A DNA stretch of 64,000 nt, taken from NCBI GenBank assembly GCA_964648765.1, contig CAZYLF010000002.1:68579-132578 (forward strand), written 5' to 3'. Made by a program: the position numbers and the translations under genes. Source of the DNA: an uncultured Candidatus Saccharibacteria bacterium (GTDB lineage: Bacteria > Patescibacteriota > Minisyncoccia > Phycocordibacterales > JACOZG01). This document shows positions 32,821-52,039 of the stretch, in pieces. The notes below the pieces were generated by a model. That model searched no databases, had not been told where the DNA came from, and saw only the letters and a list, made by a program, of their open reading frames with translations. Each line of letters starts with the position of its first letter. The stretch's first letter is position 1.

Positions 32821-33216
32821 TTACTCATTACGAGTAGAGTTCTTGGCGACCATTCTGATTTGTTCCAAAGTGAGAGAGCCGAGGCGTTTGTATAAATCGA
32901 GCAACTCTCCAAATTCTGGTTCCTCAATTTTCTCCAGCTTTGCCTCCACTATAGATCCAAGTAGCGGGAGGATATTCAACCCAGTGCGATTTTCCTGCGG
33001 CGTTTCTTTTTTTAGTAAGTCCTCCATCTCCTTAACTGTTACGCCGTAAGCTTTAGCAATCTTGGGCATATTACTTGAGTTGGGATAGTACTTCCCATTT
33101 TCCCAACTCGAAACGCTAGCCTGTTTTGATCCTATTTCCCTCGTAACATCCTCCTGTTTTTTACCTAACTCCTTCCTTTTTTTCCTCAGAAAATCACCGA
33201 GGTCTTTCTTAGACAT
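32821..33216 (-). CDS. XRE-family HTH transcriptional regulator
   Basis: GKKQEDVTREIGSKQASVSSWENGKYYPNSSNMPKIAKAYGVTVKEM. Confidence 0.75.
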   Translation of the reverse strand: MSKKDLGDFLRKKRKELGKKQEDVTREIGSKQASVSSWENGKYYPNSSNMPKIAKAYGVTVKEMEDLLKKETPQENRTGLNILPLLGSIVEAKLEKIEEPEFGELLDLYKRLGSLTLEQIRMVAKNSTRNE

Positions 33217-33311
33217 ATCATTTCTCCCTTATCATTTTCTGAAATTTGGTCTTTACCCAGTCCTTCTTCTTAACTATCATTAAAGATTGCTCAAGTCAAG
33301 CAGATAAAAAT

Positions 33312-41842: not shown

Positions 41843-42394
41843 CTACTCCAGATCTTCTTCCGGAACAATCATGTGATTCTTATCAGAAGTATCTGATATC
41901 GGCACATAGCCGAGAGGCACCTTCCCCAACATCTCATCTCGTACATACACCAAACCCAGCGTCTTGTGACGAGCACATTTCCCTGCCAGATAATTGCCCC
42001 AAATTAATGAACGGATACCGCGAATCGCGAGTGGATCCCTTTTCCGCAGAGCGCCGGCAAAGCTATCGTAGTTGATATAGTCCATCACTTCGACTAACCC
42101 ACAGGACACTTTAACCCGGCAACTGGGTGGGACAAATACCATAAACTGAGCCCCTTGCGGACTGCTGTGATGAACTAAACCAAAGTTATCTACAGCAAAA
42201 ACGAGAGTAAAGTCACCGTGCCTTCTGTAGCCGATTGATTGATCAATGCCGAGCAAAGTCTCTAGCCCGCTCATAGAAACCCACAACAGTCCGTCAACTA
42301 CTATCATTGACGGCACTTGGTTCGGCGGCAGATTAGCCACCACCTTACAATTTTGGATACCTTGGACAGTTGCGTTCATCGCAGACCTCCTCAC
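41843..42394 (-). CDS. Hypothetical protein
   Basis: 183 aa ORF. No recognisable motifs. Region appears GC-richer than the flanks. Confidence 0.4.
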   Translation of the reverse strand: MRRSAMNATVQGIQNCKVVANLPPNQVPSMIVVDGLLWVSMSGLETLLGIDQSIGYRRHGDFTLVFAVDNFGLVHHSSPQGAQFMVFVPPSCRVKVSCGLVEVMDYINYDSFAGALRKRDPLAIRGIRSLIWGNYLAGKCARHKTLGLVYVRDEMLGKVPLGYVPISDTSDKNHMIVPEEDLE

Positions 42395-42555: not shown

Positions 42556-42855
42556 TTACTTACTGTTGTCACTACCGTAGATTTCTTCAAGAAGCTCGGC
42601 ACCGAGACAGTCGTCGTCATCCTCAAAAAAGATCATTTCTTCGACAGTCTCCTTTTCACGGTGGTCTTCAGTGGCAATCTCAGGTGGTGGAATACCAGAC
42701 ACTACCGGTGCCAATTTGTCTTTTCCGCAGTTGCCACAGAACTTCCATTCTCGACCCTCACTATTCCAGCCACACTGGGAACAAAAGAGGATTTGTGGAC
42801 TTTTAGGCTTACCCGGCCGATTGTACATAAACTCATGCAATTGATAGATGTCCAT
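42556..42855 (-). CDS. Zinc-ribbon protein with an acidic C-terminal tail
   Basis: CSQCGWN...CGNCGK followed by a D/E-rich tail. Confidence 0.45.
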   Translation of the reverse strand: MDIYQLHEFMYNRPGKPKSPQILFCSQCGWNSEGREWKFCGNCGKDKLAPVVSGIPPPEIATEDHREKETVEEMIFFEDDDDCLGAELLEEIYGSDNSK

Positions 42856-42963: not shown

Positions 42964-44208
42964 ATGCAAGAAAAAGAGGAGGAGAAAAAGCTGGCCGAGG
43001 ATGATCATAGGAGGATTGGAGCAGAATTGGGTCTGTTCACCTTTTCTGACACCGTTGGAAAGGGGTTACCTCTTTGGACACCAAAAGGGACAACAATTCG
43101 CCGGATACTCGAGCGCTTTATTGTCGACGAAGAAATTCGCCGTGGTTACCAGCATGTTTATACACCTGACATCGCCAAAATAGATTTATTTAAAAAGTCT
43201 GGCCACTATCCATATTACAAGGATTCGATGTACGCCCCGATCAAAATTGATGAAGAAGAGTTTATGCTCCGCCCCATGACCTGCCCACACCACTTTGAAC
43301 TCTATTTATCTAAGCCTCATAGCTACCGCGAGTTGCCAGTTCGGATTGCTGAAATGGGTAAACTCTACCGTTATGAACTTTCCGGCGTGCTCACTGGTCT
43401 CACTCGCACTCGCTCCTTCTGCTTATCTGATGCCCATGTGATCTGTGCTAATCCTGAACAAGCTAAATCAGAGATTGAGCGCGCCCTCTCGCTTATCTTC
43501 TTCATGACCGAAAAATTTGGCTTAAAATCTGGTGAAGACTTTTCATATCGCCTTTCTTTAGGCAACCGCAAAGATGATAAAAAATATTACAAAGACGACG
43601 CCGCCTGGGATGAAGCCGAATCAATTCTCCGTGAAGTTCTAAAAGGTCAAGATGTGCCATTCACTGAAGCGGAAGATGAGGCCGCCTTCTACGGACCCAA
43701 AATTGATATCCAGATGAAGGATGCTCGAGGCAAAGAAGATACGGCCTTCACCGTGCAATACGACTTCGTAATGCCGAAGCGCTTTAATCTTACTTACATT
43801 GATTCTGATGGTCAAACCAAAGAGACGGTGGTGGTACATCGTTCTTCAGTTGGATCACTTGAACGGATCATCGCCTTCTTGATTGAAAAGTATAAAGGCG
43901 CCTTTCCGGTGTGGCTTGCGCCCGTGCAGGTGGCGGTGATTCCGATTGCGGAGGCGCATCAAGAATTTGCTAAAAAAGCTTTTGAAGAATTAAAACAAGT
44001 AAACATCCGCGCCGAAATTAATTTAGATAACGAAACCTTGGGTAAAAAAATCCGCGGTGCTAAGCTCCAAAAGATTCCCTATTTAATAATCATTGGCGAT
44101 AAAGAAGTGACGGCGAATGCCCTCACCGTCGAATCCCGCGACGGCGAAAAGTTAGAAAATATCTCTGTGGGAGATTTAGTAAAAAAGATTCAAGACGCCA
44201 ACAAATAA
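42964..44208 (+). CDS. thrS: Threonyl-tRNA synthetase, catalytic core plus anticodon-binding domain only (no N-terminal TGS/editing domains)
   Basis: Begins at the class-II core (DHRRIGAELGLF...), has motif 2/3 regions and a C-terminal anticodon-binding domain. 414 aa versus about 640 for canonical ThrRS. Confidence 0.88.
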   Translation: MQEKEEEKKLAEDDHRRIGAELGLFTFSDTVGKGLPLWTPKGTTIRRILERFIVDEEIRRGYQHVYTPDIAKIDLFKKSGHYPYYKDSMYAPIKIDEEEFMLRPMTCPHHFELYLSKPHSYRELPVRIAEMGKLYRYELSGVLTGLTRTRSFCLSDAHVICANPEQAKSEIERALSLIFFMTEKFGLKSGEDFSYRLSLGNRKDDKKYYKDDAAWDEAESILREVLKGQDVPFTEAEDEAAFYGPKIDIQMKDARGKEDTAFTVQYDFVMPKRFNLTYIDSDGQTKETVVVHRSSVGSLERIIAFLIEKYKGAFPVWLAPVQVAVIPIAEAHQEFAKKAFEELKQVNIRAEINLDNETLGKKIRGAKLQKIPYLIIIGDKEVTANALTVESRDGEKLENISVGDLVKKIQDANK

Positions 44209-44245
44209 AAAAACCGCTGAATCTCATAAGGGAGAGACTCAGCGG
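44207..44245 (-). terminator. Rho-independent terminator on the minus strand, overlapping the thrS stop
   Basis: Minus strand reads ccgctgagtctc-tcccttat-gagattcagcgg followed by ttttttt. Confidence 0.6.
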
Positions 44246-44430
44246 CTACGTGTTTGGGGCTTTCTGGTATCTGTCGGTGATCCCGAAAGTCGAGATCCTT
44301 ACCGCGGTCTTGCGTTAACAAGAGAGTGGTCCGAGAGGAAACAGTACCCTTATTTACTCGAGAGTTCCACCTAAACCCTAACACGTGGCCTGTACGCTAG
44401 GCGCAAGACTTCTGCGCTTCGGTCAGGTTT
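44246..44430 (-). ncRNA. Candidate small RNA of about 190-220 nt, class unassigned, bounded by its own promoter and terminator
   Basis: No ORF of 60 aa or more on either strand. A consensus promoter lies upstream and a strong terminator downstream. Several internal hairpins, e.g. gcgcagaagtcttgcgc. Confidence 0.3.
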
Positions 44431-44433
44431 CTA

Positions 44434-44463
44434 CATACTATACTACTTAGTTTAATTTGTCAA
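44434..44463 (-). promoter_or_regulatory. Sigma-70-like promoter overlapping the gyrB stop codon
   Basis: Minus strand reads TTGACA, a 17-nt spacer, then TAGTAT (alternatively TATAGT with a 15-nt spacer). Confidence 0.4.
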
Positions 44464-46490
44464 ACATCCAAGTTGGCCATCTTGGCGTGGGTTTGGATGA
44501 AGATTTTACGAGGTTCAACTTCTGAACCCATAAGCACGGTGAAGGTTTTGTCGGCTTCCGAAGCCTCTTTAATATCCACACGTTTAAGTACGCGCTTCTC
44601 TGGATCCATGGTTGTCTCCCAAAGTTCTTCTGGATTCATTTCTCCAAGACCTTTATAACGCTGCACAGAAACTTTAGCTACCTTAACTTCTGCCTCGGGC
44701 ACGTCCGTTTCAGTCTCCCTTTCAATTAAATCTTCTGGCTTGCCACCCAAACGTTTAACGATTTTATTTTTATCGTCTTCAGAGAATGAATAAACAATTT
44801 CTTTACCCTTTTTAATTTTGAAAAGTGGTGGTTGCGCAATGTATAAATATCCGCCGGAAATAATGGTGGGGAAATGACGATAGAAAAGAGTGAGAAGAAG
44901 CGTGCGGATGTGCGCGCCGTCCACGTCGGCATCAGTGGCGATAATAATTTTGTGATAGCGCAATTCTCCAAGGTCAAAGTTCTCACCAATTGACGTACCA
45001 AGAGCGATAATCAAGGACTTAATTTCTTTAAATGCGAGCATTTTATCGAGCCGCGCACGTTCAACGTTTAAAATTTTACCTTTAAGTGGCAAGATGGCTT
45101 GCGTGCGACGATCACGACCTTGCTTAGACGAGCCACCGGCTGAATCTCCCTCAACGATAAAAAGTTCTGCTTCCTCGGCCTTTTTAGTTTGGCAATCCGC
45201 GAGTTTACCTGGCAACATTAAACCTTCAAGTGCGCCTTTACGTAAGATAGAATCTTTAGCCGCTTTAGCTGCCTTGCGCGCGCGCAGTGCAATAATCACT
45301 TTATTTACAATTGCTCGCGCGTCTTCAGGATTCTCTTCTAAAAAGAGTGAGAGAGAATCACTAAAGGCCGTCTCCACCGCACCACGCACTTCAACGTTGC
45401 CGAGTTTAGCTTTAGTTTGACCCTCAAATTGTGGGTTACGAAGTTTAACCGAGATTACAGCCGTGATACCCTCGCGCACATCGTCGCCAGTGAAGGCGCC
45501 GTCGGCATCTTTAGCCATATTATTCTTCTTAGCGTAATCATTTAAGCCACGAGTGAGCGCTGTGCGGAAACCGGTTAAGTGTGTGCCACCTTCGGGCGTG
45601 ATGGTGTTGTTGGTGTAAGTAATTTCGCGAGCAATAATGTCGTCGATGTATTGGAAAGCAATTTCAATATTAATTTCATTTACCTCCTTCTCCGCGTAGA
45701 AAACATTTTTATGTCCCGGCTTCTCATTTTGGTTTAAGAAGCGCACGAGCGACAAAAGTCCACCTTCAAAGTAAAATGTTTTAGAAGGTAAAGGTAAATC
45801 CAATTCTCTTAAATATAAAACTTTTTCAGCCTCAATTTTGCCGGTGTAACCACGGGCATCAATGGCGCGAACTCTTAATTTTTTAACTAAATAGGCTTGG
45901 CCTCGGAGATGATTGGTGATCCTATTAAAATCGTAAATTAAATCTGAGAAGATCTGGGCGTCAGGTTTAAAGGTGATCACCGTGCCGTGCTCTTTAGTCT
46001 TGCCGATTTGTTTAACATTTGCCTTCTTTTTACCACGAGCAAATTCTTGAAAGTGAATTCCACCTTCACGATACACATGAGCTTGTAACCACTCAGAAAG
46101 CGCGTTCACCACCGATGCTCCCACACCGTGGAGACCACCGGAAATTTTATACCCCTCACCTTCAAACTTTCCACCTGCGTGGAGCACCGTGAGCACTGTC
46201 TCGAGTGCCGAGACTCCAGTCTTTTTATGTATCGTCACGGGGATACCGGCGCCGTTGTCGGCTACGCGGATCACATCACCAGGCAAAATTGCCACCTCGA
46301 TTTCATCACACGAACCGTTCATCGCCTCATCGCGTGAGTTGTCGAAAATTTCTACGAGCAAGTGATGGAGGCCATCAGTGCCTGTGGAGCCAATATACAT
46401 ACCTGGGCGCTTACGCACCGGTTCTAGGCCCTCAAGGACTACGATATCTTCAGCGTCGTATTTACGTTGTTTAGGGCTCTCTTTAGGCAT
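44460..46490 (-). CDS. gyrB: DNA gyrase subunit B
   Basis: GHKL N-domain LHAGGKFEGEGYKISGGLHGVGASVVNALS. TOPRIM EGDSAGGS...PLKGKILNVE. Ends ...ANLDV-TGA. Confidence 0.96.
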   Translation of the reverse strand: MPKESPKQRKYDAEDIVVLEGLEPVRKRPGMYIGSTGTDGLHHLLVEIFDNSRDEAMNGSCDEIEVAILPGDVIRVADNGAGIPVTIHKKTGVSALETVLTVLHAGGKFEGEGYKISGGLHGVGASVVNALSEWLQAHVYREGGIHFQEFARGKKKANVKQIGKTKEHGTVITFKPDAQIFSDLIYDFNRITNHLRGQAYLVKKLRVRAIDARGYTGKIEAEKVLYLRELDLPLPSKTFYFEGGLLSLVRFLNQNEKPGHKNVFYAEKEVNEINIEIAFQYIDDIIAREITYTNNTITPEGGTHLTGFRTALTRGLNDYAKKNNMAKDADGAFTGDDVREGITAVISVKLRNPQFEGQTKAKLGNVEVRGAVETAFSDSLSLFLEENPEDARAIVNKVIIALRARKAAKAAKDSILRKGALEGLMLPGKLADCQTKKAEEAELFIVEGDSAGGSSKQGRDRRTQAILPLKGKILNVERARLDKMLAFKEIKSLIIALGTSIGENFDLGELRYHKIIIATDADVDGAHIRTLLLTLFYRHFPTIISGGYLYIAQPPLFKIKKGKEIVYSFSEDDKNKIVKRLGGKPEDLIERETETDVPEAEVKVAKVSVQRYKGLGEMNPEELWETTMDPEKRVLKRVDIKEASEADKTFTVLMGSEVEPRKIFIQTHAKMANLDV

Positions 46491-46557
46491 GTTTTATACG
46501 ATCAGTGTAGCATAAAGTGGGTAGCAAATCTACTCTATTTCTGATATATTTGGGCGT

Positions 46558-47688
46558 ATGGAAATCGACATAAATTCTCCTGAAGAGGCTAAGTTGCGAG
46601 CCAAGCTAGCCGAGCGCAAAGATGCTGAGGCGCGACGCATGGAGCGATTTCTCGCTATGCCCGATCTCGCTCGTACGCCCGGTAGTCCGCTGCATGAAGT
46701 GGTAAGTCGCGCGCTCAAAGTTGAGGGGTTGAAGGACTTCGATATTATTAAAATCCCCGAGATCGTCCCCTCTTCCGTTACCTTCGACCTCTTCAACATG
46801 CCGCCGGGTCATCCAGCTCGCAGTAAGTCCGACACTTATTATGTAGACGACGATCACATCCTGCGCACTCACGACACCGTGATGTGGTACTACTATTTAA
46901 ATCATCCCGAGACTAAAAAGAAAATTGAGAATAAAGAAAATTTAGGTGTAATTTGTTACGGCAAAGTTTATCGCAAAGATGAAATTGATCGCCGCCACAT
47001 GAACGTCTTTCACCAATTCGGCGGGTTATTTTTAGTCCCTGATGATAAGCAAACTATTAAACCTGAAGATTTAAAATCTGTGCTTTCTGACGTGGCCAAG
47101 GCGATCTTCGGTGATAAAGTTAACTTTAGATTTTACGATCACAACTTCCCCTACACTGATCCGAGCTTCGAGATGGAAGCAGAAATTAATGGTCAGTGGA
47201 TTGAGATGCTCGGTTCCGGTTTACCTCGCAAAAGTGTGTTAGAAAACTTCGGTTTAACCGGTTACAACGGTTGGGCCTTCGGCTTCGGCCTTGAGCGCTT
47301 AGCAATTTCTAGTATGAGTTTGCCCGACATTCGCCTACTTTGGTCTGATGATGAGCGCGTAAAAAAACAACTTAAGTTGGGGCAAAAATTCCAAGAAGTT
47401 TCTAAATTCCCACCCATCACCCGCGACATCTCCTTCATTGTGCCCAACACCTTCGTGGTCAACGACTACTTCGATCTCATCCGCGAACTCGGCGGTGACT
47501 TAGTGGAAGAAGTAACTTTACTTGATAAATACGAAAACGCTGCCAAATTCGGCGAAGGTAAATTAAGCTACACTTACCGCATCATCTATCGCTCCATCGA
47601 GCGCACTCTCACCACCGACGAAATCGAACCCATCCAAAACCAAATCATCACCGAAACAAAAAAACAGTTCGTCGCGGAGATTAGGTAA
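46558..47688 (+). CDS. pheS: Phenylalanyl-tRNA synthetase alpha-type catalytic subunit with a C-terminal FDX-ACB-like anticodon-binding domain (monomeric, mitochondrial-type architecture)
   Basis: Class-II motifs including FNMPPGHPARSKSDTYYV and GWAFGFGLERLAI. C-terminal ~100 aa (FPPITRDISFIVPNTF...LSYTYRIIYRSIERTLT) resembles the FDX-ACB domain normally found in PheT. Confidence 0.85.
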   Translation: MEIDINSPEEAKLRAKLAERKDAEARRMERFLAMPDLARTPGSPLHEVVSRALKVEGLKDFDIIKIPEIVPSSVTFDLFNMPPGHPARSKSDTYYVDDDHILRTHDTVMWYYYLNHPETKKKIENKENLGVICYGKVYRKDEIDRRHMNVFHQFGGLFLVPDDKQTIKPEDLKSVLSDVAKAIFGDKVNFRFYDHNFPYTDPSFEMEAEINGQWIEMLGSGLPRKSVLENFGLTGYNGWAFGFGLERLAISSMSLPDIRLLWSDDERVKKQLKLGQKFQEVSKFPPITRDISFIVPNTFVVNDYFDLIRELGGDLVEEVTLLDKYENAAKFGEGKLSYTYRIIYRSIERTLTTDEIEPIQNQIITETKKQFVAEIR

Positions 47689-51963: not shown

Positions 51964-52039
51964 TGGAGCCGGTGGTCGGGCTTGAACCGACGACCTACGG
52001 TTTACAAAACCGTTGCTCTACCAACTGAGCTACACCGGC
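51964..52039 (-). tRNA. tRNA-Thr (anticodon UGU), CCA encoded
   Basis: Minus strand reads GCCGGTG-TA-GCTCAGTTGGTAGAGC-A-ACGGT-TTTGTAA-ACCGT-AGGTC-GTCGG-TTCAAGC-CCGAC-CACCGGC-T-CCA. All four stems pair. Anticodon loop U-U-UGU-A-A. Confidence 0.9.

Follow-up and report, generated by a model that had tools for sequence, protein, structure and literature searches.

The 251-nt spacer between the convergent genes gyrB and thrS carries an RNA structure that is under purifying selection and belongs to no described RNA family. The spacer lies in a 64,000-nt stretch of contig CAZYLF010000002.1, called the window here, and coordinates are window positions. The predicted RNA is about 225 nt long (44206-44430) and is read from the minus strand. 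It is very likely a genuine functional structured RNA. Taken as a whole, the description that we favor, with distinctly more reserve, is that of a trans-acting, folded RNA of no described family that binds a partner as a discrete particle of about 225 nt. It is a new family of a known kind, the structured small RNAs of bacteria, and it is narrowly distributed.

An initial annotation, made from the window sequence alone, had proposed an unassigned small RNA (sRNA) downstream of gyrB, and conservation and covariation in relatives bear this proposal out. A lineage from Hainich groundwater (L084, L085 and Logan contig L099; labels of this form stand for stretches of related DNA) carries a clear RNA homologue at the same place. 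GyrB of this lineage is 92% identical to that of the window, and DnaE and PheRS are each 91% identical. The alignment of the window RNA with that of L084 spans 227 columns and has 72% identity, compared with only 45% at the four-fold degenerate sites of gyrB. Six invariant runs of 16, 12, 10, 9, 9 and 9 nt lie within it. The folding z-score of the stretch is -4.3, better than all 200 shuffles, and that of the homologue is -4.1.

RNAalifold predicted 86 base pairs, 16 of which are changed on both sides and still pair. These double changes are located in the 5' hairpin H1 (1, at the tip), the long-range helix P2 (3), the L-hairpin (2), the variable hairpins V1 (2) and V2 (4), and the terminator helix (4). 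An explicit count found standard pairs in 97.6% of cells. As a control, the 3' partners were slid by 1-3 columns, which gave 0-2 double changes as compared with the 16 observed; 0/500 shuffles reached the observed values. Further compensating changes in the terminator separate L084 from L085. The alignment indels are 1, 1, 3, 1, 8, 8 and 1 nt long and break any reading frame. Clearly, identity above the neutral rate, 16 compensatory pairs and the lack of a conserved frame, the features expected of a structured non-coding RNA, show that the RNA structure is selected.

The complementary strand folds equally well (z-score -4.2). Because folding does not discriminate between the strands, G-U pairs, the -35 hexamer and the U-tract were used to tell them apart. 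Pairing is kept in 96% of cases with 17 G-U pairs when the minus strand is read, versus 87% when the plus strand is read. Together with the hexamer and the U-tract this shows that the minus strand is the functional one.

Architecture of the fold

All features of the fold are on the minus strand and are described from the 5' end. Hairpin H1 (44389-44427) has arms CCUGACCGAAGCGCAG and UUGCGCCUAGCGUACAGG and the loop AAGUC. Its 15 pairs include two one-sided changes besides the double change, and its 5' arm sits within the 16-nt invariant run AAACCUGACCGAAGCG. The interior hairpin gcgcagaagtcttgcgc, cited in the initial annotation as an example of local structure, is the tip of this longer hairpin. 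Helix P2 is formed by 13 pairs between a 5' arm at 44373-44386, which is also inverted repeat I1, and a 3' arm at 44248-44262; the 3' arm was recovered by alifold, by the covariation count and as an inverted repeat. P2 closes a central multi-helix domain. Near its 5' arm is the invariant block UUAGGUGGA (44366-44374). The GGUGG of this block can pair either locally or with CCRCU at about 44325-44329, the latter with a probability of 0.6-0.75 in the window and 0 in L084.

Within the domain, the L-hairpin (44343-44359) consists of a 5-bp stem and an invariant 8-nt loop, AAUAAGGG (44347-44354). It is followed by the 5' strand of the junction core, GUUUCYUCUCGGACCRCUC (44324-44342), which contains the invariant run UCUCGGACC and pairs with 44261-44278 and with CCGCGG. 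The latter is an invariant junction segment at 44302-44307. On either side of it are V1 (44308-44323) and V2 (44279-44297), each 8 nt longer in the homologue. Four of the six V2 pairs are changed on both sides, and these two apical hairpins are the least conserved parts of the RNA. The 3' strand of the junction core, RCCGRYAGAUACCAGAAA (44261-44278), contains the 12-nt invariant run AGAUACCAGAAA. An 8-nt complementarity between the H1 tip, GUCUUGCG (44402-44409), and V1, CGCAAGAC (44307-44314), appears as repeat I8; it is not kept in L084 and is probably due to chance.

The molecule ends in the hairpin of an intrinsic terminator (44246-44213), whose invariant 8-nt loop is UCCCUUAU (44226-44233). 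Within it CCCUUAU (44232-44226) is exactly complementary over 7 nt to AUAAGGG (44353-44347) in the L-hairpin loop; the pair was also listed as inverted repeat I11. Both loops are invariant in both lineages while their stems covary. The energy of the 7-bp loop-loop duplex is -7.8 kcal/mol. From about 1.2 Mb of related DNA, 213 terminator-like hairpins were screened for 7-nt complementarity of their loop to that of a hairpin further upstream. Apart from this RNA a single case passed, made of A and T alone, and the shuffled control gave 1. Since both loops are invariant and such complementarity is rare among these terminators, we propose that AAUAAGGG and UCCCUUAU probably form a kissing-loop tertiary contact.

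Predicted transcript boundaries and family searches

The initial annotation placed promoter-like hexamers at the gyrB stop codon and a GC-rich terminator hairpin with a U-run downstream, and these sequence features are present. The -35 hexamer TTGACA (44463-44458) overlaps the gyrB TGA (44462-44460). After a 17-nt spacer it is followed by the -10 hexamer TAGTAT (44440-44435), and the two hexamers together match the consensus at 10/12 positions. TTGACA is identical in L084 and L085. It is not present in a sister lineage (L081-L083), whose gyrB ends in a TAG codon. Between the two RNA-bearing lineages only part of the predicted promoter is conserved. The terminator hairpin begins about 190 nt past the -10 hexamer. 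It has a 13-14-bp stem with 7 G-C pairs, 4 of its pairs are changed on one side in addition to those changed on both, and T7 A T3 is found downstream of the stem. The U-tract (U7 A, 44205-44212) is antisense to the thrS stop codon at 44206-44208. The terminator is strong, with a stability of -23.9 kcal/mol in the window and values of -23.9 and -18.1 for the two homologues. From these signals the 5' end of the RNA is inferred to be 5-8 nt past the -10 hexamer and the 3' end inside the U-tract; the stretch thus delimited (44206-44430) is recovered from sequence, alifold structure and a covariance-model match of 218 bits.

No terminator was found between gyrB and the RNA, so gyrB transcripts run through it, and the stretch doubles as the 3' untranslated end of the gyrB transcript. 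Folds truncated before the 3' arm of the terminator contained no conserved competing antiterminator. Downstream of the RNA there is no sense gene, only the convergent thrS. It had also been suggested that the terminator serves thrS in the opposite direction. This idea is not supported: the plus strand, which is the sense strand of thrS, reads ACGTGTTT after the hairpin, and the scan reported no terminator on it. Furthermore, a further 117 nt separate the hairpin from thrS in L084. Of the marks expected of an independent sRNA gene, the terminator is clear and covaries and the -35 hexamer is conserved, but the -10 hexamer is conserved only in part.

The 4227 covariance models of Rfam 15 were searched at the gathering threshold against the whole window, and at E<=10 against positions 44100-44560 and L084 8050-8480. 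The gathering-threshold search found just one tRNA, at another place in the window. At E<=10 the window segment gave only a chance match of a microRNA model to the terminator hairpin (E 4.2, 15 bits versus a gathering threshold of 80), and the L084 segment only a chance match of a snoRNA model outside the RNA. ARAGORN found no tRNA-like or transfer-messenger RNA (tmRNA) gene in 43900-44800. The RNA was therefore correctly left unassigned in the initial annotation, which had set aside signal recognition particle (SRP) RNA, tmRNA, RNase P RNA and T-box leaders.

Each of these candidates was rejected. For SRP RNA there is no model match in either homologue, and the apical hairpins V1 and V2 are the least conserved parts. 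Neither ARAGORN nor Rfam finds a tRNA-like domain or a tmRNA gene. RNase P RNA has no model match in either homologue, and bacterial RNase P RNAs are longer than about 225 nt. A T-box leader is rejected because the RNA is convergent with thrS, truncated folds contain no antiterminator, and no T-box model matches. Likewise, a riboswitch leader would lack a downstream sense gene, and the stable terminator (-23.9 kcal/mol) has no competing structure. The earlier suggestion that the RNA might be 6S-like is likewise unsupported. In the consensus fold and by covariation no closing stem joins the ends; H1 holds the 5' end and the terminator hairpin the 3' end, each covarying on its own, and the center is multi-branched rather than a rod with a bubble.

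The statement that neither strand has an open reading frame (ORF) was only partly correct. A 64-amino-acid (aa) ORF with a GTG start crosses the region (44190-44384, minus). The non-coding character of the stretch nevertheless stands. The conserved blocks of this ORF fall in different frames in L084, it has no Pfam match, and among 1.84 billion representative proteins phmmer matched nothing but long repeat proteins, as multi-stretch artefacts.

Distribution and genomic setting

The window GyrB has its best genome matches in uncultivated Patescibacteria/Paceibacterota (Vogel-, Nomura- and Yonathbacteria), none of them above 76% identity, and protein searches found only two GyrB clusters above 77% identity. 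Logan copies of the window genome (L086-88) are identical to the window. Beyond these and the Hainich lineage, 80 other species-level GTDB Paceibacterota loci were searched within 6 kb of gyrB by nhmmer, blastn, co-occurrence of conserved blocks and covariance model R1, and none carries the RNA. Rfam gave only tRNAs in 11 of these loci. gyrB and thrS are convergent neighbors in many of the 80 genomes, but their spacer is only 6-120 nt long and holds just a hairpin. Conserved placement 3' of gyrB, which had been proposed as a check, is found only within a single genus-level clade.

The sister lineage (L081-83 with L090-94) has a GyrB of 93% identity. Its gyrB contigs all end 25 nt past the TAG stop codon. 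Its thrS contigs all carry, at the position of the RNA, an orphan gene of 260 aa (L090:4314-5096, minus) with its own near-consensus TTGACT-18-TATAAT promoter; neither Pfam nor PADLOC gave a match for this gene, and PHROG gave no informative one. All contigs, which come from many samples, break off at identical bases on either side, and their ends form the inverted repeat AAGAAAATGGAGCA / TGCTCCAAATTCTT. The two ends are probably adjacent across a hairpin that broke the assembly, and we infer from this that the RNA is probably absent from the sister lineage. In L089, a further ThrRS relative, the RNA is not next to thrS either.

Larger sequence collections were scanned with exact patterns. One scan of JGI metagenomes (ATAAGGGN{2,9}GTTTCNTCTCGGACC) gave three chance matches inside ORFs and no covariance-model match. 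In viral contigs, none of four scans produced more than a single chance match, which lay in G+C-rich coding DNA. Distant relatives escape an exact 21-base pattern, and these scans speak only to the rarity of near relatives in those collections. The RNA is probably an accessory rather than a universal gene, known from the two lineages of one genus-level Paceibacterota clade.

gyrB itself (44460-46490, minus) encodes 676 aa and matches the NCBIfam model of DNA gyrase subunit B with 903 bits. The opposing thrS (42964-44208, plus) is a short form of 414 aa that covers only positions 164-563 of the ThrRS model TIGR00418; the window ThrRS is without N-terminal domains. ThrRS proteins of the two RNA-bearing lineages (42964-44208 versus L084:8457-9689) are only 54% identical, whereas identity is 91-92% for GyrB, DnaE and PheRS on the flanks. 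The contrast indicates that thrS was replaced in place by a distant allele, with one recombination boundary at or just past the RNA terminator. The 117 nt between the terminator and thrS in L084 (L084:8340-8456) are a second conserved non-coding element, here called element 2 (CCACACCATGG...GACCACCATTT...). It makes up the entire gyrB-thrS spacer in L001 (L001:4214-4330; nhmmer E about 2e-4), is not in the window and has no Rfam match. Element 2 could be a thrS 3' element or another small RNA.

On the other side of gyrB, a single-chain PheRS of 376 aa is encoded at 46558-47688 (plus). Its top models are mitochondrial-type pheS and 'PheS-related SrmL', with a further match to the C-terminal part of the PheRS beta subunit (pheT). 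The divergent pheS-gyrB spacer of 67 nt (46491-46557 versus L084:5934-6000) is about 85% identical (57/67 columns), far above the 45% of gyrB four-fold sites, and presumably represents a pair of tightly constrained promoters or leaders. Between dnaE and thrS are two orphan ORFs of 183 and 99 aa (41843-42394 and 42556-42855, both minus) without a family match in Pfam or PADLOC or an informative one in PHROG. L084 has only a 60-aa call at this position, which makes it another variable spot in the neighborhood. The sole tRNA of the window is a tRNA-Thr(UGU) at 51964-52039 (minus), with U73 and a CCA end encoded in the genome.

Favored explanation, competing explanations and known systems

In the model that we favor, transcription of the RNA would start at a sigma-70-type promoter, with the -35 hexamer overlapping the stop codon of gyrB. 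Read-through from gyrB would be a second source, yielding the RNA as the tail of the gyrB message, and both transcripts would stop at the RNA's own strong, constitutive intrinsic terminator. The product would fold into H1, a core of several helices that P2 closes and that comprises the invariant junction and two expendable peripheral hairpins, and finally the terminator hairpin. Kissing of the terminator loop with the L-hairpin loop would lock the molecule in one globular shape. The invariant junction and loops may then serve to bind a partner; a protein is the likeliest candidate, and another RNA is a possible one. The combination of an invariant junction, expendable covarying hairpins and a loop-loop lock suggests an RNA that binds its partner by shape rather than an antisense RNA with a linear seed. 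That the partner is a protein in particular is a possibility that we hold tentatively, below an even chance. A cis regulator or a simple linear-seed antisense RNA appears unlikely.

Several observations count against this model. Two lineages and one population variant supply all of the covariation, and the structure was tested on the very sequences that yielded it. The junction helices and the kissing loop never vary; their support is conservation and complementarity rather than covariation. The two lineages also disagree in the core, the window favoring the alternative GGUGG/CCACU pairing and L084 that of CCRC with GCGG. Promoter-like sites occur at chance level, about 1 per 900 nt (1 found versus 1.1 expected in shuffles), and by themselves the hexamers prove nothing. 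At the 17-nt spacing L084 has TAGGGT, which keeps only the TAnnnT positions, and the scan does not list a promoter there. The RNA ends and an independent promoter are predictions from sequence. Protein binding and action in trans are both argued from architecture, and no partner, target or linked gene was found. Finally, the narrow distribution and the apparent replacement in the sister lineage show that the RNA is dispensable or mobile.

Among the competing explanations, the one that survives best is that the stretch acts purely in cis, as a long structured 3' untranslated region and terminator of the gyrB mRNA, with incidental promoter hexamers and no RNA function of its own. The gyrB transcripts must indeed traverse the RNA, with no terminator in between. 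The -35 hexamer is partly fixed by gyrB coding sequence, the -10 hexamer is degenerate in L084, and the match of the two is no better than chance. Other Paceibacterota, moreover, have a short gyrB-thrS spacer with a hairpin only. The same short spacers, at 6-120 nt, also speak against a cis element, as these relatives manage gyrB with them. A terminator needs about 40 nt, whereas 190 nt more are conserved here, with invariant blocks of 9-16 nt, a covarying long-range helix and four covarying hairpins. Furthermore, TTGACA co-occurs with the RNA, being present in both RNA-bearing lineages and not in L081-L083, which are without the RNA after gyrB on their contigs. We consider a purely cis-acting element unlikely.

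A base-pairing sRNA is less likely still. In this case the C-rich terminator loop UCCCUUAU would be the seed for purine-rich ribosome-binding sites like AUAAGGGA, and the AAUAAGGG loop would mask it. The UCCC-loop RNAs of Firmicutes are comparable seed-loop RNAs, and the pattern of an invariant terminator loop on a covarying stem is what such a seed might look like. A candidate target exists: UCUCCCUUAU is complementary over 10 nt to AUAAGGGAGA (33223-33232, minus), 8 nt upstream of the AUG of a 131-aa helix-turn-helix gene (32821-33216, minus). A 10-nt match is expected about 0.1 times in 128 kb of two-strand sequence, but many seeds were tried, which brings this one close to chance, and the stem bases in the UCUCCCUUAU match differ in L084. 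The window shows no enrichment of ATAAGGG (9 found versus 7.8 expected). An uninformative screen with duplexfold of the whole RNA against 5' regions gave unrealistically long duplexes and no shared top target. Nor does a seed RNA need an invariant multi-helix junction.

A riboswitch- or T-box-like sensor, which would respond to tRNA-Thr and control antisense read-through into thrS, is very unlikely. Its appeal lies in the adjacency of thrS and in short motifs. The T-box core GGUGGNAC has a look-alike in the invariant block AGGUGGAAC, whose UGGA could pair with the UCCA-3' terminus of the window tRNA-Thr, and the invariant ACCA in GAUACCAGAAA could act as a Thr codon plus a purine. Kissing between a terminator loop and a loop of the sensor domain also recalls the L5-L13 contact of cobalamin riboswitches. 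Yet chance alone will produce 4-nt matches like those of UGGA and ACCA. At E<=10 there is no match to a T-box, cobalamin or any other riboswitch model, and a T-box has its elements in the opposite order. There is no conserved antiterminator, and the terminator is very stable. L084, moreover, keeps the RNA although its thrS was replaced by the 54%-identical allele and a 117-nt spacer was inserted.

That the RNA is a highly divergent 6S, SRP, RNase P or tmRNA missed by the Rfam models in Patescibacteria is scarcely credible. In its favor are the divergence of patescibacterial sequences and the length of about 225 nt, which falls within the size range of 6S and large SRP RNAs. However, neither homologue has an Rfam match at E<=10, ARAGORN finds nothing, and the ends are unpaired, with no 6S rod. 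The covariance model finds no such RNA within 6 kb of gyrB in the 80 other Paceibacterota loci, and a sister lineage with 93% identical GyrB is apparently without it at this site. A universal RNA would not have its exact 21-base core in this clade only, and the one metagenome pattern scan gave no true match. A small protein gene or its decayed remnant, for which the 64-aa GTG ORF might be taken, has a negligible chance of being correct: L084 does not keep its frame, no conserved position holds a ribosome-binding site with a start codon, no Pfam match or genuine match among 1.84 billion proteins was found, and the substitutions compensate one another in stems and follow no codon periodicity.

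We return to the partner-binding RNA that we favor. A bolder version would see in it the first known member of a new patescibacterial class of RNAs with tertiary structure, with the junction as a binding pocket or active site and the loop-loop contact as an integral part. We regard this as improbable. Examples would be a trans-acting sensor or decoy for tRNA-Thr or for the truncated ThrRS next door, a small ribozyme, or a ribonucleoprotein scaffold. Literature searches yielded no report of non-coding RNAs specific to lineages of Patescibacteria, or of structured RNAs specific to Patescibacteria as a whole. Because the genomes of Patescibacteria are very small and have little spare DNA, a conserved RNA gene of 225 nt is probably there for a reason. 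It is also a testable object: the fold covaries, the junction is invariant, and a 7-bp loop-loop contact involving the terminator loop is predicted. Should further members come to light, it could provide a new RNA family for annotation and a handle on RNA-based regulation in bacteria that are not culturable alone. The RNA merits deposit as a candidate family.

The RNA has features in common with several groups of bacterial RNAs but belongs to none of them. It shares with T-box leaders a location near an aminoacyl-tRNA synthetase gene, a GGUGGAAC block resembling the T-box core, and an intrinsic terminator at the end. Unlike them it is on the opposite strand, convergent with thrS, and has no Rfam T-box match at E<=10; its GGUGGA block is about 140 nt upstream of the terminator and forms no antiterminator. 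Cobalamin riboswitches use a regulatory kissing loop, L5-L13, and here too the loop of the 3' hairpin (expression platform or terminator) is complementary to a loop inside the folded domain. The contact proposed here is drawn from complementarity only, and the RNA differs from cobalamin riboswitches in having no model match, no downstream sense gene and no antiterminator fold. With 6S RNA it has in common the size range, a terminator of its own and, if the prediction is right, a promoter of its own. It differs in that it has no closing end-to-end stem, no central bubble and no Rfam 6S match, and its ends are separate covarying hairpins.

DapZ of Salmonella and MicL of E. coli are sRNAs embedded in 3' ends and transcribed from a promoter of their own that lies within the upstream gene or at its end. 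The genetic arrangement is similar here: the predicted promoter overlaps the end of the upstream coding sequence, and the terminator is shared with the mRNA, so that the RNA has two possible origins. Unlike DapZ and MicL, which have a short Hfq-dependent seed and little conserved structure, this RNA is a large covarying fold with an invariant junction. In this respect it is closer to the raiA-motif RNA, an orphan structured non-coding RNA of about 200 nt that is represented in Rfam. The two differ in that no Rfam sequence or structure match links them, and the range of the present RNA, two lineages of one Paceibacterota clade, is far narrower. Like the raiA-motif RNA, it would be a stand-alone transcription unit of similar size, built from multiple helices with long-range or pseudoknot-type contacts, a conserved junction and variable peripheral hairpins.

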